This document shows, one piece after another, positions 9,657-26,296 of a stretch of DNA of 32,000 nt (within the stretch, counting starts at the first letter, position 1; every line of letters starts with the position of its first letter). This DNA is from an uncultured Actinomycetes bacterium. Lineage in GTDB: Bacteria; Actinomycetota; Actinomycetes; S36-B12; CAIYMF01. The position numbers were made by a program, and so were the translations under genes. The notes below the pieces were generated by a model that saw only the letters and a program-made list of their open reading frames with translations, was not told the DNA's origin and made no database searches. Where the stretch lies: positions 2,670,001 through 2,702,000 of the forward strand of contig CAWJMG010000003.1 of assembly GCA_963843975.1 (NCBI GenBank). The letters are read 5' to 3'.

Positions 9657-9678
9657 GATGAAGGTTCGATGAAGGTGT
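9657..9678 (+). promoter_or_regulatory. Candidate response-regulator operator: tandem GATGAAGGTTC GATGAAGGTGT
   Basis: Two 11-bp units in exact register, 89 bp upstream of the MCO start (9568), in the divergent intergenic region. Confidence 0.55.
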
Positions 9679-9712: not shown

Positions 9713-9734
9713 GGACCTTCATTGGACCTTCATC
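9713..9734 (-). promoter_or_regulatory. Candidate response-regulator operator: tandem GGACCTTCATT GGACCTTCATC (inverted copy of the 9657-9678 pair)
   Basis: Near-perfect 11-bp tandem, 44 bp upstream of GTG 9778, separated from the first pair by a 34-bp GC-rich spacer. Confidence 0.55.
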
Positions 9735-11735: not shown

Positions 11736-12026
11736 ATGCAATGGATCTCGGGCCTCTGGGCGGCGGGCAGCGGCTGGGCCCCCGCGCTCGTGGCCGGCGT
11801 ATGGCTGTGCCTCGTCATCACCGCCGTCGCCGCCGCACGGTCCCTCTACGGCGGCAGTTCCGACCGGGCCGACCACTCCCTGGGGCGACAGACCCACGGC
11901 GACCTGAACCGGCTCCTCGCCTCCGGGCTCATGTCCCCCCACGAGTACGAGCAGGCTCTCGACGCACTGTCACGTTCACGACGCCCGACCGTAGATGGCC
12001 ACCAACCCTGGGAAGGCAAACCATGA
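11736..12026 (+). CDS. Small membrane protein with weak SHOCT-like C-terminus
   Basis: 96 aa. AAGGGAG 9 nt upstream of ATG 11736. TM APALVAGVWLCLVITAVAAA, then DLNRLLASGLMSPHEYEQALDAL. ATGA overlap with the csoR-like gene. Confidence 0.6.
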   Translation: MQWISGLWAAGSGWAPALVAGVWLCLVITAVAAARSLYGGSSDRADHSLGRQTHGDLNRLLASGLMSPHEYEQALDALSRSRRPTVDGHQPWEGKP

Positions 12027-12325
12027 CTGCTACGAGGACGACCAACGCCGCCGGCGCCCACGCGCTCAGCGACGCAGCGGCTCGCCACGCCCTCATCGGC
12101 CGCCTGCACCGTGCCGAGGGCCAGCTCCACGGGGTTGCCGCGATGGTCGAGCAGGGCCGACCCTGCAACGAGGTAGTGGTCCAGCTGATGGCTGTGAGCA
12201 AGGCCGTGGAGCGGGCAGCCCTTCAGGTTGTAACTGAGAACCTTCGAGAGTGCGTGGCGTCCGGCGACCTGGACCTGTCGACCCTTGCTGACGACTTGGC
12301 CGGACTGCTACGCCCGATGGCATGA
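12023..12325 (+). CDS. CsoR/RcnR (DUF156) family metal- or thiol-sensing transcriptional repressor, atypical ligand set
   Basis: 100 aa from ATG 12023 inside track ORF 11741-12325. Family core RLHRAEGQLHGVAAMVEQGRPCNEVVVQLMAVSKAVERAALQVV. Cys48 and Cys77 have the canonical 29-residue spacing, but position 73 is Asn, not His. Confidence 0.85.
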   Translation: MTATRTTNAAGAHALSDAAARHALIGRLHRAEGQLHGVAAMVEQGRPCNEVVVQLMAVSKAVERAALQVVTENLRECVASGDLDLSTLADDLAGLLRPMA

Positions 12326-12983: not shown

Positions 12984-13423
12984 GTGCGCATCGTCGTGGC
13001 TATCTCGCTGCACTCGTCATCGCGGTCGTGACCCTGATCGGGACGGTCGGTGCCGCAGCCGTCTACGCCACGTCTCACGGTTCCCGATGGGCTGCGGCCT
13101 CCCCTGCTGACAACGGCGACACGGGATGGGGCGAGATGATGGGCGGCTCGGGACGGGGCGGCGGCACGATGGGTGGCTCCGACTCGGGCACCGCTACCGT
13201 GAGCCTGCGGCAAGCGCAGACGATCGCTCATGACTGGGTATCCAAGAACGCCGCCGGCGCGACCCTCGACTCCGGAGTGACCATGCCGATGGGCTACGTG
13301 TTCACCGTAAGCCAGGTCAATCAGATGGTGGCTCGCATCATGGTGAACGACGACACAGGCGAGGTCATTGTCCGCAGCGTGACCTACTCGAGGCCCACCG
13401 CGACAGCCAGATCGGTTAACTGA
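12980..13423 (+). CDS. Membrane-anchored protein with PepSY-like C-terminal domain
   Basis: 147 aa. N-terminal TM (YLAALVIAVVTLIGTVGAAAV), a Gly/Met-rich linker (GWGEMMGGSGRGGGTMGGS), then a PepSY-like segment SLRQAQTIAHDWV...VFTV...VNDDTGEVI. Confidence 0.6.
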   Translation: MSAHRRGYLAALVIAVVTLIGTVGAAAVYATSHGSRWAAASPADNGDTGWGEMMGGSGRGGGTMGGSDSGTATVSLRQAQTIAHDWVSKNAAGATLDSGVTMPMGYVFTVSQVNQMVARIMVNDDTGEVIVRSVTYSRPTATARSVN

Positions 13424-13425
13424 CC

Positions 13426-14142
13426 ATGCCGGACGCGGCAACGCCCCCCGGGAAGGGGGCGAGGGTGAGGGCACTCGTCATCGAAGACGAAGCCCCCATC
13501 CGTCGTGTCATCGCCGCGTACCTCACCCAGGAAGGGTTCGACGTCAGTGAGATCGACAATGGGCTGACCGCGCTCGAGGTTATCGAACGGGAGCTGCCCG
13601 ATGTCATCGTCCTGGACCTGATGCTGCCCGGCCTCGACGGCGTCGAAGTCTGCCGGCGGTTGCGCACGTTCAGCGATGCCTATGTCGTGATGCTCACCGC
13701 TCGAGCAGAGGAGGTCGACACTCTCATCGGCCTTTCTGTGGGGGCGGACGACTACATGACGAAACCATTTAGCAACCGCGAGCTCGTCGCCCGGATCCAC
13801 GCCATGATGCGGCGCCCGCGAGCCAGTCTCCCAGCCGACGGAGTGCGCGCGTTCGGGAGCCTGAAGATCGACCCGGAAAGTCGGGAAGTCATCCTTGACG
13901 GAGCCTCCGTGGAATTCACCCGCACCGAGTTCGATATTCTCGATGTCCTGTCCGCTCAACCGCGGCGCGTCTACTCCCGGGAACGACTCATCGACGCGGT
14001 GTGGGGAGCCGGCTGGATCGCTGACGCCCGCATCGTCGACGTCCACGTCTCCCACATCCGCGCGAAGCTCGGCGACTCTACGACAGACCCGAAGTACATC
14101 CTGACCGTCCGTGGCGTCGGGTTCCGGATGGGCACCGGATGA
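13426..14142 (+). CDS. OmpR/PhoB-family response regulator (CopR-like by context)
   Basis: 238 aa. Receiver domain (ALVIEDE.., DVIVLDLMLPGLDG, KPF) plus a winged-helix domain (LTVRGVGFRMG). ATGA overlap with the kinase gene. Confidence 0.93.
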   Translation: MPDAATPPGKGARVRALVIEDEAPIRRVIAAYLTQEGFDVSEIDNGLTALEVIERELPDVIVLDLMLPGLDGVEVCRRLRTFSDAYVVMLTARAEEVDTLIGLSVGADDYMTKPFSNRELVARIHAMMRRPRASLPADGVRAFGSLKIDPESREVILDGASVEFTRTEFDILDVLSAQPRRVYSRERLIDAVWGAGWIADARIVDVHVSHIRAKLGDSTTDPKYILTVRGVGFRMGTG

Positions 14143-15302
14143 CCCGGCAACGGGTCGTGGCCTCGCACGGGCAGGGGCCAACCCTGCGCATCCGCATATT
14201 CGGGGTCATGGGCCTGGTCGTGTTGGCCGGAGCCGGTACACTCCTGCTCGTTGCCCTGCTCGCGGCGCCGGCAGTGTTCTACCGATCTCTTATCAGTGCT
14301 GGGGTCGACCCAAACACCGAGCTTGCCGCCCGCGTCCACCAGGGGTTCGCCTCCGCAACACTGGTGTCGATCGCGGCCGGCGTCGCCGCTGCGATCCTGG
14401 TGGCGGCGATGATGTCCATCCTGGTCACAAGACGCATCACCCAGCCGATCACCGAGGCTGCCGCCGCAGCCGAGCGGCTCGCTGCTGGCGACTACAGCGC
14501 GCGAGCCGCCGCTTCGCGCATGGGTCCCGAGCTCGCCAGCCTGACGTCCTCGGTGAACACCCTCGCCCAGCGCCTCGAGGCGAGCGAGCAAGCCCGCCAA
14601 CGCCTCATGTCCGACCTCGCGCACGAGCTCCGCACCCCCCTGACGTCGATCGACGCCACCGTCGAAGCGATCGCCGACGGAGTCCTCCCGGCGGATCGGA
14701 GTACCCTCCGAACACTCACGGACCAAGCCCGGCGCCTCGACCGTCTCATCGACGATCTCAACGCCGCCTCCCGGGCAGACGAACACGCGTTTCGGGTGAA
14801 CACTCAAGTGACCGAAATTTCCGACGTCGTTCGTTCAACCGTCTCACAAGCCCACGCTCGATACACCAGCTTCGGCGTCGCACTTGAGACCGTGAACGTT
14901 GCGAAAGCCACGGCGTTTGCTGACCCAGACCGACTCGCGGAGGTTCTCGGCCAGCTCCTCGACAACTCCCTGGCCCAGTGCGTGGACGGAGACATCGTCC
15001 GCGTTTCGTGGATCACGCACTCCGACGACGTTCAAATCACGGTCTCCGACACAGGGCGTGGTTTCGATCCGCAGGACGCCGAACGGTTGTTCCAACGCTT
15101 CTACCGCCGACAACCCGACCCAGCTGGGCGGGCGGCCGGGGGGCACGGCGTCGGCCTCACCATCGCGAGAGCGCTGATCGAAGCGCAGAACGGAACGCTC
15201 ACCGCGACAAGCACTGGGCTGGGATGCGGCGCCTCATTCACCATCACAGTCCCACGCCGCCAGGACCTGAGAGCCACTCACGCGGCCTCCACCCGGAGCT
15301 GA
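14139..15302 (+). CDS. HAMP-domain sensor histidine kinase with very short extracytoplasmic loop (CopS-like by context)
   Basis: 387 aa. Two TMs flank a ~25-30-aa loop. HAMP domain, H-box SDLAHELRTPLTSI, N/G boxes (LLDNSL.., DTGRGF, GHGVGLTIARALIEAQNG). Confidence 0.92.
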   Translation: MTRQRVVASHGQGPTLRIRIFGVMGLVVLAGAGTLLLVALLAAPAVFYRSLISAGVDPNTELAARVHQGFASATLVSIAAGVAAAILVAAMMSILVTRRITQPITEAAAAAERLAAGDYSARAAASRMGPELASLTSSVNTLAQRLEASEQARQRLMSDLAHELRTPLTSIDATVEAIADGVLPADRSTLRTLTDQARRLDRLIDDLNAASRADEHAFRVNTQVTEISDVVRSTVSQAHARYTSFGVALETVNVAKATAFADPDRLAEVLGQLLDNSLAQCVDGDIVRVSWITHSDDVQITVSDTGRGFDPQDAERLFQRFYRRQPDPAGRAAGGHGVGLTIARALIEAQNGTLTATSTGLGCGASFTITVPRRQDLRATHAASTRS

Positions 15303-18000: not shown

Positions 18001-20091
18001 TCACTGCGACGCCGACGACGCGAGCCCGCACGCGCACGCCAGTCTCAGGGCCGTCTCCTTCGCCCGTTCCAGCTGCTCCGCAAGCGCGCGTCGCTGCGCC
18101 CAGGCGAGTTCGCGGCGACGCAGCGCCGGCTCGATCCGCCTCAGTTCCTCGTCGCTGACCGGAAGCGAGAAGGCGATCGAGACCATCTGGGCCAGATCCG
18201 CTCGGTAGTCGTGGCCGCGCGCCACGAAGGTTCCCGGTACGACATTCAGGGCATTGAGCATGTCGATGCCCGTCATCAGGAACGTCGTCAGGGGCCGCCA
18301 TCGCGTCGTCCTCGGTATCCCCGGTGGCCGGTGGGACTCCGGTCCCAGCCATGTCGGCTCCTGAACGAGGAGAGCGGCCTCGAAGCGAGTGACCGGGTCC
18401 TCGTGATGGGAGAGCAGGAAGAAGCGGTGACGATCACGGTCCTTCCCGTGTGCGGTCATCCACTCGGCGTGGGAAGCGACCTCAACGATCTCTCCAGCCG
18501 GGTCCTCCCGAGCCGGGGAAGCCCTCCACTGGCGTGCCCACTTGCTGGTTGCCGGCGTCCCGAGGAACAAGGCCCGGTCGATGCCGGCTCGGTGCAGGCC
18601 GCCCGTTCCCTCGCCGAGGAACGCGTCCTGGAGCGTATGTGCGCCGAGTGACTCTCCGAAGCCGACGAGGCGGGGACGCAAGCCGTCGGGTATTGCGGCT
18701 AGACGCCACCTCAATGCGTGCAGGAGTGCCCGGTTCTGCTCTCGCCCGATTGAGACTCGGTCGATCGACAGGAAGGACGGGCGTAGCGAGTACTGCAAGG
18801 CCACCGTGGCGCAGTCACCTCTCGTGAGGTGCTCAAGGGTCTCGACTGCGACGTAGTTGACGTAGCCGCTGCCCGTGGGCGATGCGAGGCAGATCACGGA
18901 GCGCTGGAAGGCTCCGAGCTTCTCGAGGTCCGCCATCACAAGGTCCACGCGGGCATCGACCGTGGCTGCCGAGGCCACCCCCGCGTAGGCACGCACGGGC
19001 ACGGTGACCTGGTCGAGCGGCGATCCCGTGGTCGCCGCGATCTCTTGCCTTGACAGGGCCATGTTGACGAATCGGACCCCCTCACGCGACAGCGTCCGCC
19101 AGCCGATCGACGAGGACGGCCCACCGCTGACCGATTCGCTCTCGGGGCAGGTCGCATAGGCTGCCTCAACGCCCGCGCCGAAGAACTCTGCCCTGCGGGT
19201 GGCAACCCTGAGTCCGGTCAGCAGCATGGCGCCAACTGCGGCCAACGAGACGGCTCGGCCCACCAGCCCCGCGACCGCCCCGTCGTCGCCCACGACGGGC
19301 CGCACCCATAGGGCCACCCGGCGCGCGAGGAGCGCGTCCGCGGCCGCGACGCCTTCCAGGCACAGCGCGACGGCCGTACCGAGAGCGACAGATCTGGCTA
19401 TCGGCGGCAAGGGGTCCAGCCTTGGCCCCTCCGTGGCGCGAGCAGGGTCAGGGCGACTGGCCACAGGGTCGGTCGGCGGCGGCAGAGCCCCCGGGTCCTG
19501 GACTCGATGGGCCATCGCGATCGACCGGCTCGCTAACGCGACGCCGAGGAGTCGGGCGCTGCTTGCCGCAACGGCGCGCAACGTGGGGCCGGCATGAACG
19601 CGGCGTGTCGCGCACCGGGCGGCGCTGTCTGCAGCTTCGACCACGAGTCTGGCGACGCCCACCTGCACGACCCGGTGACCAACCGTGCGGGCGACGGCCC
19701 GACGCAAGGACTCACCCGGCCGGTCGGCCGCCAGCAGGTGCAGAGTGACACCAGAACCCATGAGGGCCGCCGTCGCGATGGCTCGCGTTCCGGGCCCTGT
19801 GGACGAGGCGTCACGTGTCCTGGTCACAGCGCGGACGACCGCGGTCGCCGCATACTGCGACGCCAGGACCAGTCCGTACTCGGTAGCCCCGACGACGCCG
19901 ATCAGCAGCGCCTGATCCTTCATGCGGCGAGGCATCAGACCGAGGGAGAAACTCGAGCCTACCGCCGCGGTGGCCACCAGCACCGCCGTGCGTCCAGCCG
20001 TGTCTCCCCCGGTCAGGTGGCGCACAGCGACCTGGCGCAGCTTGCGCCGATCTACCATGGGGACCACCGTGCGCTCGAACGAGGCTGCCAC
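18001..20091 (-). CDS. Membrane-anchored alpha/beta-hydrolase family protein (N-terminal multi-TM domain plus C-terminal hydrolase domain)
   Basis: 696 aa. The N-terminal ~300 aa has several TMs (SFSLGLMPRRMKDQALLIGVVG...). The C-terminal domain has VICLASPTGSGYVNYVAVETLEH and a nucleophile-elbow-like GFGESLGAH. Start could instead be M12 (20058). Confidence 0.72.
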   Translation of the reverse strand: MAASFERTVVPMVDRRKLRQVAVRHLTGGDTAGRTAVLVATAAVGSSFSLGLMPRRMKDQALLIGVVGATEYGLVLASQYAATAVVRAVTRTRDASSTGPGTRAIATAALMGSGVTLHLLAADRPGESLRRAVARTVGHRVVQVGVARLVVEAADSAARCATRRVHAGPTLRAVAASSARLLGVALASRSIAMAHRVQDPGALPPPTDPVASRPDPARATEGPRLDPLPPIARSVALGTAVALCLEGVAAADALLARRVALWVRPVVGDDGAVAGLVGRAVSLAAVGAMLLTGLRVATRRAEFFGAGVEAAYATCPESESVSGGPSSSIGWRTLSREGVRFVNMALSRQEIAATTGSPLDQVTVPVRAYAGVASAATVDARVDLVMADLEKLGAFQRSVICLASPTGSGYVNYVAVETLEHLTRGDCATVALQYSLRPSFLSIDRVSIGREQNRALLHALRWRLAAIPDGLRPRLVGFGESLGAHTLQDAFLGEGTGGLHRAGIDRALFLGTPATSKWARQWRASPAREDPAGEIVEVASHAEWMTAHGKDRDRHRFFLLSHHEDPVTRFEAALLVQEPTWLGPESHRPPGIPRTTRWRPLTTFLMTGIDMLNALNVVPGTFVARGHDYRADLAQMVSIAFSLPVSDEELRRIEPALRRRELAWAQRRALAEQLERAKETALRLACACGLASSASQ

Positions 20092-20248
20092 CCAACTGAA
20101 CGGCGATCCATGGTCCGGCTGTGGCCGCTACCCTGCCGTGCCGGCCCGGGGCACGACGCACGACTGCCAGGCTCCGAGACGACCGTGACCGGGGAGGCTG
20201 TCATGCTCCCAATGTTGAGCGTGGAGGCCTCAGGTCTGCCGGAGATCC

Positions 20249-20270
20249 GGTGAAGGTCCCGTGAAGCCCC
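20249..20270 (+). promoter_or_regulatory. Candidate response-regulator operator: tandem GGTGAAGGTCC CGTGAAGCCCC
   Basis: 11-bp register, 158 bp upstream of the hydrolase start (20091), inside the 525-bp gap downstream of the ATPase. Confidence 0.4.
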
Positions 20271-20572
20271 GGCGAGCCTTCTCCACGCCGGCCCCAAGAT
20301 CGTGGACGCACGCGTGCATGGAGCCACCGTTCCTCCGATCGCGCGGATCGGCGTCGACAGCGGGAATGGTGCCTACCCCTCGGAGACCGGACAGGTGGCT
20401 GACCGGGATGACGCGACCGGGTTCTCCTGTGCGGTCTCGGCGCTGCGGAAGTGAGGGGGAGCCTGGCCTCGGACCGGGGAACATGCGCGCGGCGGCGCAT
20501 GCGGACTGTTGCCGACGACGAACGTGAGCTGCGGGTTCCACTGGCGAGTGGTCGCTCTGTGATTCCCGGGGC

Positions 20573-20591
20573 GGACGGCTCAGCACCGTCC
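20573..20591 (-). terminator. Possible stem-loop downstream of the ATPase gene
   Basis: GGACGG-N7-CCGTCC, 26-44 nt after the ATPase stop (20617-20619). Short stem, no U-tract. A second palindrome, CATGCGC-N6-GCGCATG, lies at 20482-20501. Confidence 0.25.
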
Positions 20592-20616
20592 GGACGGCAA
20601 CGCTCCCCAGCGTCGG

Positions 20617-23604
20617 CTACACCTCGGCGCTCACCCGGTCGAGATACGTGTCGCGGCATGAAGTGGAGCAGAAGTAGTTGGTCGCGCCGTCCGCGTCGGC
20701 GGCGGACACGGCGCTACTCCGGGCCACGACCATGCCGCAGACGGGGTCCACGGCCTCGAGGGGGACAAGTCCTTCGCGTTGCGTGGTTTCGGCGGCGCGG
20801 CCACCGACCTCGACGAGTGGCTCGACGTCTCCGCGCGGGAGCAGCTCACCAAAGGCGGCTGGCTTGAACCTGCGCAGCCGGTTCGCGTTGGCGACCACGG
20901 ACAGCGAGGAGAGTGCCATCGCTGCGGCCGCGATGACGGGGCTGAGTCTCAGCCCGAATGCGGGGTAGAGCACGCCTGCAGCGATGGGAATGCCGAGGCC
21001 GTTGTAGATGAATGCGAACACCAGGTTTTGGCGAATGTTGCGCATCGTCGCCCGGGACAGGTCGATAGCTGTGACAAGCCCCGACAGCGCACCGGAGATG
21101 AGCGTGATGTCCGAGGACTCGATGGCTACGTCCGTCCCGGTCCCAATGGCTGATCCCACGTCGGCCTGGGCCAGGGCTGGGGCGTCGTTGATACCGTCGC
21201 CGACCATCCCCACGACGCGGCCCTCGCCTTGCAACCGCAGCACCTCGGCGGCCTTGTGCTCGGGGAGCACCTCGGCCACGACACGTGTGATGCCGACCTG
21301 CCGAGCGATGGCTGCCGCGGTGATCCTGTTGTCCCCGGTCATCATGACCACGTCGATGCCGCGGGAGGCCAAGGCAGCTACGGCGGCCGCAGACCCCTCC
21401 TTAATGGTGTCCGCCACAGCAATGACACCAGCGGCATGGCCGTCGACGGCTACCAGCATGGGGGTCTTACCATCGCCAGCGAGCTGCTCGGCGACGGCGA
21501 ACAGCCCGTCCGCATCAACACCCAGGCTGCTCAGCAGCCGCTCGTTCCCGACCGCCACCGATCGGCCACGAACGGTCGCTGTGATGCCTTGCCCTGTGAT
21601 CGACTCGAAGTCCACGGGCTCGGCGAGCTTGGCCCCCGTCTCCCGTGCCCCGTCCACGATCGCGGCAGCCAGCGGGTGCTCGGACAGCGTCTCGGCGCTG
21701 GCGACAAGGGCGAGGAGGTCGTCCTCGCCCACAGAGGACGTCGCAACAACGTCAGTGAGGGCTGGCTTGCCCTTGGTGATGGTGCCCGTCTTGTCCAGGA
21801 CCACCGTGTCCAGCTTGTGTGCTGTCTCGAGCGCCTCAGCGGAGCGGATCAGGATCCCCGACGTCGCGCCCTTGCCGGTGCCGACGGTGATCGAAAGCGG
21901 CGTTGCGAGGCCAAGCGCGCAGGGGCAGGCGATGATCAGCACGGACACGGCCGCGACCAGCGCGAAGATGAATGCGGGCGGTGGGCCGAACAGCGCCCAG
22001 GCAACGAAGGTCCAGATCGCGATCCCCATCACTGCAGGGACGAAGTAGCCGGAAACGGTGTCGACGAGCCGCTGGATCGGGGCCTTGGAGCCCTGCGCCT
22101 CACGCACGAGCTTGATGATCTGGGCCAGCATCGTCTCAGCGCCGACCTTGGTCGCCTCGTAGCGGAAGGATCCGGTCTGGTTGATCGTTGCCCCGATGAC
22201 CTGATCACCGATCGCCTTCGTGACCGGGATTGGTTCTCCGGTCACCATGGATTCGTCGACGGACGAGGTGCCGACGACGACGAGACCGTCGACGGGCAGC
22301 TTCTCTCCGGGCCGCACCACCACCACGTCGCCTAGGGCGACGTCCTCGATCGGGATCTCGACCTCGCCGCCCGCTCTGAGCACGCGTGCGGTCTTGGCCT
22401 GCAGCCCGATCAGCGCCCGAATTGCCTCGCCGGTGCCGGCCTTGGCCTTGGTCTCCAGCAGGCGCCCCAGCAGGATGAGGGTGATGATCACACCGACGGC
22501 CTCGAAATAGACCTGCTGGACGTCCAGCGGCAGCAAGGATGGCGCCACGGTGACGACGACGCTATACCCGAAGGCTGCAATCGTCCCGAGGGTAATGAGA
22601 CTGTTCATCTCCGCCGTTCGGTGCGACAGCGCTAGCCAGCCGGTCCGGTGGATCGGCCACCCCGTGTAGAACATGACCGGCGCGATGAGGGCGAACTGCA
22701 CCCAACGGTTCATCAGCAGGTCGGGCATCCAGTCGACGCCGAAGAACTCGGTGAACATGACCGCGAAAAGCACGGGGGCAGTCAAGATCGCACCCCAGGT
22801 GACCCGCTTGCGCAGGTCGGAGATCTCAGCCCGTCGCTCGGCCGCTTCCGCGTCGCTGCTGTCGTGGGCGCCTAGGTCTGCAAGGGGACCATCGTTCAGG
22901 TGAGCACCCGAGTCACTCGTCGGCGCGACGCTCACGACCAGGGTTCCGTGCAGCATCCCCATGCCGCAGCTCATCCGGTAGCTACCCTCGGCCAGTTCCG
23001 GCAGCTCGAGCCGTGTGGTCGCGAACGGCTCCAGCACGACGTCGATACCGAGGTCGGGGATAACGAGACGCTCGGAGCACGGCGAGTCCTCCTGCCGGTC
23101 CACCACCAACGTGGTGGAACGCCCCGCTTCGATCGTCACCGCGGCCGGGTGGTACCCGGATCGGACGACCAGCGTCCCTGAAGCGGGGGTGTCCCGCGGC
23201 ATGGACACGGCCGTGGGCAGCGCGTCGTCTGGCTCGACGACCACGAGGCGCCCGTGCAGCATGTTCATGCCGCACGCGAACCCGAACTCGCCCTCTGCCT
23301 CCGGCGTGAACTCCACAACGGTCACCGCTCCCGCCGGCAAGCCCTGGTTGATCTTGAAGTCAGGAAAGACCACGCGGGACGAGCAGTCACCCGACTCCTG
23401 CCGGTCGAACGCGATCCGTACCGGGACACCGCGAACTACCTGCACGACATCAGGGCTATATCCGCCCTTGACGGTGACCGTGACGTTCTGGACACCGTCC
23501 TCGACCACGGCTGCTCGCCGCTTCTTCGGACCGAAGAAGTAGAAGCCCAGCAGTGCGGTCAGGACCGCCGCTACGAGCACGACGAGGATGTCGGTGCTGT
23601 TCAT
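20617..23604 (-). CDS. Copper-translocating P1B-type ATPase with N-terminal TM plus two cupredoxin-like domains and a C-terminal YHS/TRASH domain
   Basis: 995 aa from ATG 23604 (ATGA overlap with the copZ-like stop). Core motifs: CPC ([13 protein letters not shown]), [15 protein letters not shown] (FIYNGLG), MALSS. N-terminus: TM, KKRR, then two repeats ending [14 protein letters not shown] and [15 protein letters not shown]-terminus: DPVCGMVV...[13 protein letters not shown]. No MxCxxC HMA domain. Confidence 0.93.
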
Positions 23605-23864
23605 CGTTCGCTCCGATCTGCCGGGTTCGCGCTCGAGGACTCTTCCTCGGGACACACGTCGAACCCGGCTCCGTGCAGGGCTTCGGATACGAGCTCGGGC
23701 GCGACTGTTGCCGAGGACGTCACCGCGACCAACGAGTGCCCCGCGTGCATCGCCCCGACGGTCACGCGAGTGACACCTGGGACTTCGATGAGCGCGTCGA
23801 GGACGAACCCGATGCAGATGGGACAGTGCAGCCCGGAGACGTCCAGGTTCGCGGTCCTCACCAT
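23601..23864 (-). CDS. Heavy-metal-associated (HMA) domain copper chaperone, CopZ-like
   Basis: 87 aa from ATG 23864 inside track ORF 23601-24236. Ferredoxin-like HMA pattern with the variant site [15 protein letters not shown]. Acidic C-terminal tail. Confidence 0.85.
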
Positions 23865-23896
23865 CGGTCTGCCCTTCCCTGTGGACCTGATCGGCC

Positions 23897-23920
23897 CTGC
23901 ACGTTGTTCAACATGTGCAG
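23897..23920. promoter_or_regulatory. Imperfect palindrome upstream of the copZ-ATPase operon
   Basis: CTGCACGTTG-TT-CAACATGTGCAG, with outer 6-bp arms CTGCAC/GTGCAG perfect. It lies 33-56 bp upstream of the copZ-like start, between that start and the TGAAG boxes. Confidence 0.25.
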
Positions 23921-23944
23921 CCTGTCGCGTGCTTCCGTCAAGTG

Positions 23945-23966
23945 GCTGAAGGTTCGATGAAGAGTC
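23945..23966 (+). promoter_or_regulatory. Candidate response-regulator operator: tandem GCTGAAGGTTC GATGAAGAGTC
   Basis: 11-bp register, 81 bp upstream of the copZ-like start (23864) and 49 bp upstream of candidate small ORF GTG 24015. It shares the 14-mer TGAAGGTTCGATGA with the 9657-9678 site. Confidence 0.5.
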
Positions 23967-24014
23967 GGCGCGCGGGCGGTATCCAAGGTCGGCCCGGGTG
24001 CCTACTCTGGTCTC

Positions 24015-24179
24015 GTGGAATTCGTGCTTGGTGGCCTTGTCCTCGCCTTTCTGGTGTTCGTCATCGTCGGTGGACTCACGGGCCGGGTGAAGACTCAGTC
24101 GTGCTGCTCCACGTCGGCCGCCGACCCACGTCGGGATCTCCGGATGGCCGCCGCCTTCGAGGACGAGCCGGCGCCCTAA
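24015..24179 (+). CDS. Candidate unannotated small membrane protein (54 aa, one TM plus vicinal Cys pair)
   Basis: GTG 24015 to TAA 24177-24179: VEFVLGGLVLAFLVFVIVGGLTGRVKTQSCCSTSAADPRRDLRMAAAFEDEPAP. A 20-residue hydrophobic helix is unusual for a chance ORF in GC-rich DNA. GC3 is about 80% by hand count. No clear SD sequence, and it is below the track length cutoff. Confidence 0.3.
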   Translation: MEFVLGGLVLAFLVFVIVGGLTGRVKTQSCCSTSAADPRRDLRMAAAFEDEPAP

Positions 24180-24439
24180 GGATTCTGTGCCTGACGCAGG
24201 CACGCCCTCGCGGTGCCAAGGCCCTGGGTCACGCAACGGGCTGCTCTTTGCCCGTTGCGCTCACCTCTGGCGACGGCCTCTGGGCGTGCTCGGACCTCAG
24301 CCTCAACGTGCCGCGAAGAGTCTCATCGATTTCAGCTGGGCTGTTTCTCAGGCGCGGCCATCCCCGTCAGAGTGCCCCGGCCGACGTGGAGCAGACGGCT
24401 GTTGCCGGCCCTGGGCTGGACGCGACCACACCCCGCTTC

Positions 24440-24457
24440 CCTTGACCGAACCTTCAT
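24440..24457 (-). promoter_or_regulatory. Candidate response-regulator operator: CCTTGAC-N4-CCTTCAT
   Basis: Two boxes in 11-bp register, ending 80 bp upstream of the DUF2933 gene start (24537). Confidence 0.4.
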
Positions 24458-24536
24458 CGCCCAAACGCCTGAACAACATCGGCGCGGAGCATCGTGTGAG
24501 ACGTCAGCAAGCAGTCCTAGCATCGAGGAGCGCGCC

Positions 24537-24848
24537 ATGACGCACAGCAGCCACATCAAGTACATGATCATCGCTGGGGCCGTCGCGCTCGCCGGTTTGT
24601 GGGCCTTCGGCGTACCGCTAGGCCGCGCGCTCCCATACGCGATCCTGCTGGCCTGCCCGCTGATGATGGTGTTCATGATGCGTGGCATGGACCACGGCGG
24701 GCACGGCGGAGCCAGCCATGCACCCTCCGAGACGGACACCGCCGGACACCAGCATCACGACCGATCGACCACCAACCCCGTCGACGCCCCAACGCCGACC
24801 TTGGCGGGCGACCAGATCACCGGCATCGACAAGGAATACCGACGCTGA
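24537..24848 (+). CDS. DUF2933 domain-containing small membrane protein, His-rich tail
   Basis: 103 aa from ATG 24537 (GAGGAG 7 nt upstream) inside track ORF 24213-24848. Two TMs with LLACPLMMVFMMRGMDHGGHGG, typical of DUF2933. Tail contains HQHHD. Confidence 0.75.
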   Translation: MTHSSHIKYMIIAGAVALAGLWAFGVPLGRALPYAILLACPLMMVFMMRGMDHGGHGGASHAPSETDTAGHQHHDRSTTNPVDAPTPTLAGDQITGIDKEYRR

Positions 24849-26274: not shown

Positions 26275-26296
26275 GATGAAGGTCTGATGAAGTCTG
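26275..26296 (+). promoter_or_regulatory. Candidate response-regulator operator: tandem GATGAAGGTCT GATGAAGTCTG
   Basis: 11-bp register, 32 bp after the endonuclease-like stop and 192 bp upstream of the ATP-grasp start. It is the only site with no minus-strand gene to its left. Confidence 0.4.

Follow-up and report, generated by a model that had tools for sequence, protein, structure and literature searches.

An actinobacterial copper P1B-1-type ATPase with a predicted membrane-anchored CupA-type cupredoxin module fused in cis

We analysed a 32,000-nucleotide stretch of DNA from an uncultured Actinomycetes bacterium (contig CAWJMG010000003.1 of GenBank assembly GCA_963843975.1, positions 2,670,001 to 2,702,000; hereafter the window), in which a minus-strand open reading frame (ORF) at 20617–23604 translates into a 995-residue P1B-type ATPase. 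Taken together, its sequence, structural models of it and its analogy with a streptococcal system make it likely, in our judgement, that this protein is a Cu(I)(/Ag(I)) exporter of the P1B-1 class that dispenses with an HMA domain and instead carries a membrane-anchored CupA-type module fused in cis. The route by which Cu(I) reaches the transmembrane (TM) entry site of P1B ATPases, and the role that their terminal metal-binding domains play, are debated, and to our knowledge the only characterised cupredoxin-type pump system is CupA/CopA of Streptococcus pneumoniae. The pump described here is an uncharacterised but abundant variant of that known system, not a categorically new one; our literature search found no paper describing an actinobacterial fusion of the order TM0-CupA-(CupA)-CopA-YHS, TM0 being an extra N-terminal TM helix.

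The transport core is, by sequence, a genuine CopA-type member of the P1B-1 class, for which transport of Cu(I)(/Ag(I)) is predicted. Pfam assigned E1-E2_ATPase (E 2e-56) and Hydrolase (E 2e-34) domains along with two stretches of Cupredoxin_1 (PF13473, E 3e-33), the copper-translocating P1B-1 model TIGR01511 (ATPase-IB1_Cu) scored 603.7 bits against a curated cut-off of 397, and the closest match in the PDB was Legionella pneumophila CopA (3RFU, E 5e-199). The core catalytic motifs (DKTGT604, TGE455 and GDGINDAP802) are present together with all of the transmembrane metal-site signatures (CPC560-562; N860-x6-Y867N868-x4-P873; M896ALSS-x5-N906), which bears out the Cu(I)-type core proposed in an original prediction made from the letters of the window, with no database searches. 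Hydropathy and a full-length AlphaFold2 (AF2) model, with a predicted local distance difference test (pLDDT) score of 74, concur on eight core helices plus the additional helix TM0. Canonical CopA proteins, such as those of L. pneumophila (3RFU) and Archaeoglobus fulgidus, show the same MA/MB and M1–M6 helices with CPC, YN, MxxSS, DKTGT and TGE motifs; unlike them, however, the pump has no HMA domain or CxxC motif at either end, and has cupredoxin and YHS modules and an extra TM helix instead. A motif scan of the whole 995-residue pump found no C-x-x-C, and Pfam returned no HMA match in it, so that the absence of an HMA domain and of MxCxxC, also part of the original prediction, was borne out; an N-terminal HMA domain with MxCxxC is typical of the CopA family, though not defining. 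The protein contains exactly nine cysteines, all of them within predicted metal sites: residues 74 and 111 in repeat 1, 176 and 213 in repeat 2, 560 and 562 in the CPC motif, and 956, 979 and 983 in the C-terminal tail.

The two N-terminal repeats are, as judged from sequence and model comparisons, genuine CupA-type cupredoxin domains, for which Cu(I) binding is predicted. Both exceed the PF13473 cut-off of 27 bits (64.3 bits for repeat 1 and 59.2 bits for repeat 2), and they are 40% identical to one another and have a C-x36-C spacing in common. A sequence search of the PDB with residues 1–245 retrieved S. pneumoniae CupA (2MRY/4F2E, E 3e-27 over residues 32–122) and the metal-binding domain (MBD) of S. 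pneumoniae CopA (4F2F, E 4.5e-13). The Cu ligands of CupA, consisting of one Cys and a C-x-M-x-M motif, align with C74 and C111-G-M113-N-M115 of repeat 1, and the same set recurs in repeat 2 as C176 and C213-G-M215-G-M217. An AF2 model of residues 1–240 (pLDDT 83.8; 75–93 within repeat 2) gave, as top PDB folds in Foldseek, CupA (4f2e, TM-score 0.92) and the CopA-MBD (4f2f, TM-score 0.93, root-mean-square deviation 1.5 Å), and in the full-length model TM0 and both repeats are folded, with linkers at residues 129–139 and 228–248 falling below a pLDDT of 50. The ligands are invariant in 60 homologues for repeat 1, and in 33 two-repeat homologues for repeat 2. Profile and fold searches therefore place the repeats in a CupA-type cupredoxin fold with its ligands, and not in an unrelated fold lacking them, and the small stand-alone cupredoxin-like proteins beside metal ATPases that they had earlier been likened to can be identified as CupA. 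The extents first given for the repeats (residues 38–123, nucleotides 23236–23493; residues 143–225, nucleotides 22930–23178) were correct, as was the ending of both in CGM(N/G)MLHG; the D-x-C-S motif ascribed to each was slightly off, the shared motif being DRQE-x3-CS (GDCSS in repeat 1 and SPCSE in repeat 2). A genome-wide profile scan of the host found no stand-alone PF13473 gene above the cut-off.

The N-terminal TM helix followed by KKRR, which the original prediction had also called, was recovered both as a hydropathy peak and as an AF2 helix (Table 1), and residues F23, F24, G25, P26 and K27 at its end are invariant or nearly so across an alignment of 60 homologues. Since KKRR follows TM0 and no basic residues precede it, the positive-inside rule would place the N-terminus of the pump outside, and because a core of eight helices must be entered from the cytoplasm into MA, both repeats would be cytoplasmic, a location that follows from the topology of the core. 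The opposite arrangement, with TM0 as an N-in signal anchor and extracytoplasmic repeats that receive exported copper, would be in line with the many Cupredoxin_1 proteins that are secreted or periplasmic, for example Myxococcus xanthus MXAN_3421; however, it would turn all eight core helices around and leave the A, P and N domains on the outer side, an impossible arrangement for a P-type ATPase, and, given also the KKRR behind TM0, the lack of a basic n-region ahead of it and the fact that CupA itself faces the cytoplasm, we attach next to no probability to it.

That TM0 and the repeats belong to the ATPase depends on the start codon, and the sequence supports the ATG at 23604 as the true one: a GGAG lies 6 nucleotides upstream of it, homologues begin at the same point, and the Cys of the CxMxM motif is residue 111 in nearly all of 120 homologues (the best 120 clusters at 90% identity from a search with the full protein). 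The start does not, therefore, lie downstream of the repeats. A GTG at 23655 was considered and rejected, since an ATGA overlap with the preceding gene, the GGAG site and the N-termini of the homologues all favour the ATG.

Several features link the pump to the S. pneumoniae CupA/CopA system. Besides the cupredoxin fold and the clear homology documented above, it has, like S. pneumoniae CupA, a single N-terminal TM anchor ahead of a CupA-like domain, and in both cases the cupredoxin domains partner a CPC-type P1B-1 pump without an HMA domain. The crystallised chain of the S. pneumoniae CopA-MBD aligns from about residue 8, leaving no room for a preceding TM helix. The sole feature of CupA that is missing here is its existence as a stand-alone protein beside the pump: CupA is separate in S. 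pneumoniae, whereas here the domain is fused in frame and in cis, resulting in a predicted 9-TM ATPase with an extracellular N-terminus. Beyond the S. pneumoniae system, the pump described here adds a second repeat, a C-terminal YHS tail and a soluble HMA chaperone. CupA has been described as confined to a few streptococci (PMC7558416), whereas the host here is an actinobacterium; a cupredoxin metal-binding domain has likewise been treated as an unusual trait of one pump and a narrow exception (PMC7558416, PMC11970713), and a survey of Rhizobiales reported merely ligand-less CupA look-alikes (PMC5552934).

In the mechanism that we propose, TM0, with its N-terminus outside, would tether repeat 1 to the inner face of the membrane, where repeat 1, as a built-in CupA with a binuclear Cu(I) ligand set, would capture Cu(I) at the membrane surface and pass it on to repeat 2 and/or the transmembrane entry site. 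One disordered linker would lead to repeat 2 and a second one to the MA helix of a standard 8-TM CopA core. Repeat 2 would be the functional equal of the dispensable, regulatory CopA-MBD of S. pneumoniae, the YHS/TRASH-like module with its Asp and three Cys would act as an auxiliary site for Cu sensing or regulation, now in the course of disappearing from this lineage, and a co-translated HMA protein with a CPIC site would be a soluble CopZ-like chaperone supplying the same pump, the operon probably being induced by a CopRS-type two-component system through a TGAAG-N6-TGAAG box. The identities of the domains, the conservation of the ligands, the logic of the topology, the distribution of the architecture and the gene neighbourhoods of relatives are shown by the data; metal binding, the way in which Cu moves, how repeats 1 and 2 share the work, and regulation we infer from these comparisons.

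The same cupredoxin chemistry could also be read differently, with the tethered domains mainly forming a Cu(II) trap or cupric reductase at the inner face that converts Cu(II) to Cu(I) before export. Neubert et al. (2017), as summarised in a review, reported that S. pneumoniae CupA binds and reduces Cu(II) in vitro through its S1 cysteines, and the same Cys pair is conserved in repeat 1, but that review holds chaperoning to be the main function of CupA (PMC7558416), the cytoplasm is a reducing compartment and no redox partner is encoded nearby, and we consider this role improbable.

A more specific form of the proposed Cu(I) hand-off is a single-chain chaperone relay, in which a Met-rich, low-affinity site on the anchored repeat 1 would feed repeat 2 and/or the transmembrane entry site, with the YHS module as a third checkpoint; we put this forward tentatively, as a possibility. 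If it is true, this P-type ATPase would have nine TM helices and its N-terminus outside the cell, the CupA system would turn from a supposed streptococcal oddity into a major and evolutionarily plastic solution to copper trafficking across Actinomycetota, and a natural fusion would allow direct capture by cryo-EM of the elusive docking geometry between chaperone and pump.

The architecture is real and not rare; as far as sequence tells, it is common in Actinobacteria, yet uncharacterised. All 120 of the best homologue clusters carry PF13473 together with E1-E2 and Hydrolase domains, the great majority also having YHS, and their named sources include Nocardioides, Georgenia, Kocuria rosea, Cellulomonas, Rhodococcus antarcticus, Knoellia and other Actinomycetota; fused forms also occur in Bifidobacterium species. 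Two complete ligand sets are found in 57–58 of these 120 homologues (about 1010–1060 residues), and about 60 (about 905–960 residues) combine TM0 with repeat 1 alone. Across 1.8 billion cluster representatives, a search returned 1,090 clusters at E ≤1e-10. Among 400 sampled actinobacterial species, a repeat 1 homologue was present in 54 and the fused form, defined as a repeat 1 homologue inside an open frame of at least 860 residues, in about 24 (~6%), and the same sample held five stand-alone, TM-anchored cupA-like genes of ~127 residues. Hence, the fusion of accessory modules, which the original prediction had called unusual, is so in comparison with the textbook HMA pump, but it is the norm for a large actinobacterial clade. 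The ligand chemistry of CupA is widespread in Actinomycetota (Nocardioides, Georgenia, Kocuria, Cellulomonas, Rhodococcus and Bifidobacterium), with the presumed anchored chaperone often fused in cis to the pump. Within the host genus the gene is patchy and accessory, because a fused pump, single-repeat and only 47% identical, occurs in just 2 of 24 further species; the host genome also encodes two ordinary HMA-type CPC pumps. Genes for fused pumps of this kind are at present annotated merely as 'heavy metal translocating P-type ATPase'.

The homologues differ in how much of the N-terminal module they retain. At least one complete ligand set is kept in all 120, and 63 of the 120 lack a second one. 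Intermediate states are seen among representatives: repeat 2 has lost its ligands in P0058 (C to A, M to T; CGTGT), is degenerate in P0009 (CGTGM), and has shrunk to a linker vestige, GGMGML(R/H)A, at residues ~150–165 in P0060 and P0061. One- and two-repeat proteins are intermixed in a tree of repeat 1, whose well-supported branches require at least six changes. Because the ligands of repeat 1 are always kept, and repeat 2 is often absent, vestigial or ligand-dead, the sequences predict that repeat 1 is essential and repeat 2 dispensable. This pattern of a kept repeat 1 and an expendable repeat 2 parallels S. pneumoniae, where, in work by Fu et al. (2013), copper resistance reportedly required anchored CupA but not Cu binding by the CopA-MBD. 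The homologues amount to a natural deletion series, in which the repeat 1 ligands always persist, loss or decay has repeatedly struck repeat 2 and the YHS tail, and which predicts the essential module; a covalently tethered chaperone and pump would also be an attractive target for structural study of Cu hand-off.

Gene order suggests how the fusion came about. In all five actinobacterial genomes examined for this (L020–L024), the stand-alone cupA-like gene abuts an ATPase with CPC and DKTGT motifs, lying 3–4 nucleotides downstream of the ATPase gene in four of them and, in the fifth, 3 nucleotides upstream of an HMA-bearing ATPase, an arrangement that plausibly represents the pre-fusion state. 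Since cupA-like genes abut related ATPases, loss of the stop codon in a cupA-copA pair would be a simple route, and fusion of a cupA directly upstream with its partner copA is the most likely origin of the architecture. The ATPases of two of these loci that were compared (L020 and L021) are 55–60% identical to the pump core; for the host genome's own HMA-type CopAs the figure is 43–46%. One representative, P0125, combines two cupredoxin domains, an HMA domain and an ATPase. CupA-like cupredoxin domains were also seen at the C-terminus of DsbD_2 (PF13386) membrane proteins, some of which have an N-terminal HMA domain (P0197, P0199, P0242 and P0165), so that this module has a further, likewise uncharacterised fusion to a membrane protein.

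The origin of repeat 2 was examined with quick and careful maximum-likelihood (ML) trees of 109 domains and 91 columns. In the ML trees, 24 of 30 copies of repeat 2, that of this pump among them, fall in a diverged clade and the other 6 in a clade that resembles repeat 1 and lies within it, and the identity between repeats 1 and 2 forms a continuum from 33 to 71%. Two independent origins of repeat 2 were nevertheless not upheld: the bootstraps split it, but a tree constrained to a single repeat 2 clade was not rejected in an approximately unbiased (AU) test (p 0.88 and 0.72) and even had the higher likelihood. Orthology of repeat 2 with the S. pneumoniae CopA-MBD was likewise unsupported, the MBD forming a long branch of 1.9 substitutions that groups loosely with stand-alone CupAs.

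At the other end of the protein, the tail reads D953-P-V-C956-G-M ... Y-F-C979-S-T-S-C983, with a spacing of the TRASH type. An Asp and three Cys are the proposed Cu ligands of YHS domains (PMC4626032), and all of them are kept here. AF2 folded residues 950–994 with confidence, into four short strands and a helix (pLDDT ~86), and a profile built from this tail and 19 homologue tails matched phenol hydroxylase in its YHS region (E 2.7e-7) and L24e, a TRASH protein (E 1.6e-5). Among the other 119 of the top 120 homologues, 115 have the C-x21/22-C-x3-C motif (116 of 120 with this pump included), and a precomputed Pfam YHS domain is likewise found in 115 of the 119. The same D-P-x-C-G-M ... F-C-S-x2-C module occurs in copper ATPases and sensors of the YHS/TRASH kind, namely Rhizobiales group VII, Myxococcus CopA with PF04945 and the adenylyl cyclase of Mycobacterium phlei. 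The YHS copies of Rhizobiales sit at the N-terminus together with a CxxC domain (PMC5552934), unlike the pump described here, where one C-terminal copy accompanies cupredoxin domains. This copy is eroded: Pfam YHS (PF04945) scored 16.6 bits on the pump and 21.9 bits in the genome scan, the cut-off being 30.3, and judged against 106 homologues, which are 82–99% conserved at the columns concerned, it carries the substitutions DP->AR following CGMxV, EH->DA ahead of a G, Y->N in YYF, H->S in CSxHC, and P->V and Y->E in FxxxPxxY. In the three closest relatives (81–83% identical) the module is wholly lost. The YHS/TRASH-type Cys motif that the original prediction saw in this tail thus stands as regards its ligands, but not as a domain above threshold, and we read the tail as a YHS/TRASH module on which constraint has relaxed in this lineage, with intact ligands and an uncertain function.

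Directly upstream of the pump, the gene of an 87-residue protein ends in a TGA that overlaps the pump's ATG as ATGA, and Pfam recognises an HMA domain in its product (26.4 bits), as expected from the translationally coupled HMA chaperone with an HCPIC site that had been proposed earlier. Its LHCPIC site keeps the CxxC but not the customary M/T flanks, and all NCBIfam CopZ models fell below their cut-offs for this protein. It is homologous (E 8.5e-5) to the product of the overlapping gene upstream of the Georgenia pump, which has GPVCGVC. In the Kocuria and Rhodococcus loci the place that the HMA gene takes here, immediately before the pump, holds no called gene.

Several of these observations weigh against an exporter served by its own CupA-type module. 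Metal binding, stoichiometry and transfer are modelled on S. pneumoniae proteins that are 31–55% identical; the analogy of repeat 2 with the MBD extends only to position and dispensability, because the tree cannot place repeat 2 with the long-branch MBD; the YHS tail is under the Pfam threshold and, with eight residues lost at six highly conserved sites, may be non-functional here; and the presence of a separate HMA chaperone may mean that the pump need not depend on its own cupredoxin domains for Cu delivery. A rival view takes the cupredoxin domains and the YHS tail as purely regulatory Cu sensors, autoinhibitory modules that would free the A, N and P domains once metallated, as has been proposed for HMA domains, with the HMA chaperone alone delivering Cu. 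The chaperone gene is coupled to that of the pump in Georgenia as well, the long disordered linkers (residues 129–139 and 228–248) would let the domains reach the cytoplasmic headpiece, and a current review makes the case that P1B pumps use their terminal metal-binding domains as sensors for autoinhibitory tails (PMC11970713). Repeat 1, however, TM anchor included, is far nearer to the chaperone CupA than to the CopA-MBD (E 3e-27 vs 4.5e-13), the Kocuria and Rhodococcus pumps have no called gene in the chaperone's place, and copper resistance in S. pneumoniae needs membrane-tethered CupA (PMC7558416); we therefore regard a purely sensory role as rather unlikely, and retain delivery through the fused CupA-type module as the likely explanation.

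The surroundings of the pump suggest copper-responsive control. The window holds five TGAAG-N6-TGAAG direct repeats, against 0.06 expected by chance, one of which precedes the HMA gene (Table 1). These share their half-site and 11-bp register with the experimentally defined CopR box of Corynebacterium glutamicum, TGAAGATTTnnTGAAGATTT, from which a like function here is predicted (PMC3140484), and together they probably mark out a CopRS-type regulon that extends across the island. Because CopR-like boxes occur in the window together with an OmpR-type regulator and kinase, induction of the HMA-pump operon by copper via a CopRS-like system is likely. A promoter and terminator scan of 20000–24600 yielded nothing above shuffled expectation.

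Table 1 Coordinates in the window of the pump, its predicted parts and neighbouring features.
Feature	Position	Strand	Basis or detail
Cu(I)-exporting P1B-1 ATPase (predicted), non-canonical terminal domains, 995 aa	20617..23604	-	LpCopA 3rfu E 5e-199; TIGR01511 603.7 bits
TM0 helix, aa 3-24, then KKRR	23533..23598	-	hydropathy peak 2.72; AF2 helix 3-24, pLDDT 84-96
Repeat 1, CupA-type cupredoxin domain, aa 29-123	23236..23520	-	predicted ligands C74, C111, M113, M115
Repeat 2, diverged CupA-type cupredoxin domain, aa 141-225	22930..23184	-	predicted ligands C176, C213, M215, M217
Transport core, aa 249-912 (MA, MB, M1-M6; A, P, N domains)	20869..22860	-	Pfam, 3RFU match, motifs, AF2
YHS/TRASH-like module, aa 950-994, D953 + C956-x22-C979-x3-C983	20623..20757	-	tail profile, AF2
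87-aa HMA (CopZ-like) protein, LHCPIC site	23601..23864	-	Pfam HMA PF00403 26.4 bits vs cut-off 24.8
CopR-type direct repeat TGAAGGTTCGATGAAG (putative)	23947..23962	+	83-98 bp upstream of HMA gene ATG, divergent intergenic region
Five TGAAG-N6-TGAAG boxes	9659-9674, 9717-9732, 20251-20266, 23947-23962, 26277-26292	+, -, +, +, +	
OmpR-type regulator (13420-14142) and kinase	13420-15302		
DUF2933 small membrane protein, His/Met-rich tail, divergent	24537..24848	+	Pfam PF11666 E 1.8e-11

This context also bears on what the pump is for. As two canonical HMA-type CPC ATPases are already encoded in the genome, the pump could be specialised, acting as a low-rate exporter like CopA2/CcoI that supplies extracytoplasmic cuproenzymes and does not serve detoxification. 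We give this little credence: the CopR-type boxes, the DUF2933 gene and the two-component system around it form the context of a resistance island, a CsoR-family repressor lies directly downstream of the pump in Kocuria and Georgenia, no cbb3 oxidase or multicopper oxidase gene was found among the neighbouring ORFs scanned (~8 kb), and a distribution as patchy as that within the genus is what accessory resistance genes typically show.

The 525 bp that follow the pump (20092–20616), an apparently empty gap, were searched for a decayed csoR by tblastn with the CsoR proteins of Kocuria and Georgenia, which found nothing there; the only CsoR-family match was at 12023–12325. That CsoR/RicR-like gene (plus strand) scored 43.9 bits with the RicR model, far under its cut-off of 175. 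The His position of its C-x25-H-x3-C pattern appears to be Asn (..RPC..ENLREC..), so that the product may not be a Cu(I) sensor, and it could be of a CstR-like or other subtype.

Within the 670-bp divergent intergenic region, a 54-residue ORF (24015–24179, plus strand) encodes a vicinal CC pair and a single clean TM helix; in the orientation of the box at 23947–23962, this ORF is downstream of that box. Two further P1B ATPases were noted elsewhere on the contig. One of them (L008, G000:C3:2651736-2655278), ~17 kb before the window, has an unusual CPD in M4, where CPC or CPH is usual, a Cys-less N-terminal HMA-like domain and a long His/Glu-Asn-rich stretch, and adjoins a canonical HMA-CPC pump (L007). 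The other (L009, G000:C3:2032731-2036237) has a PCP motif and a long C-terminal helical extension containing His and Glu, and from its sequence looks like a P1B-5 type with a hemerythrin-like domain.

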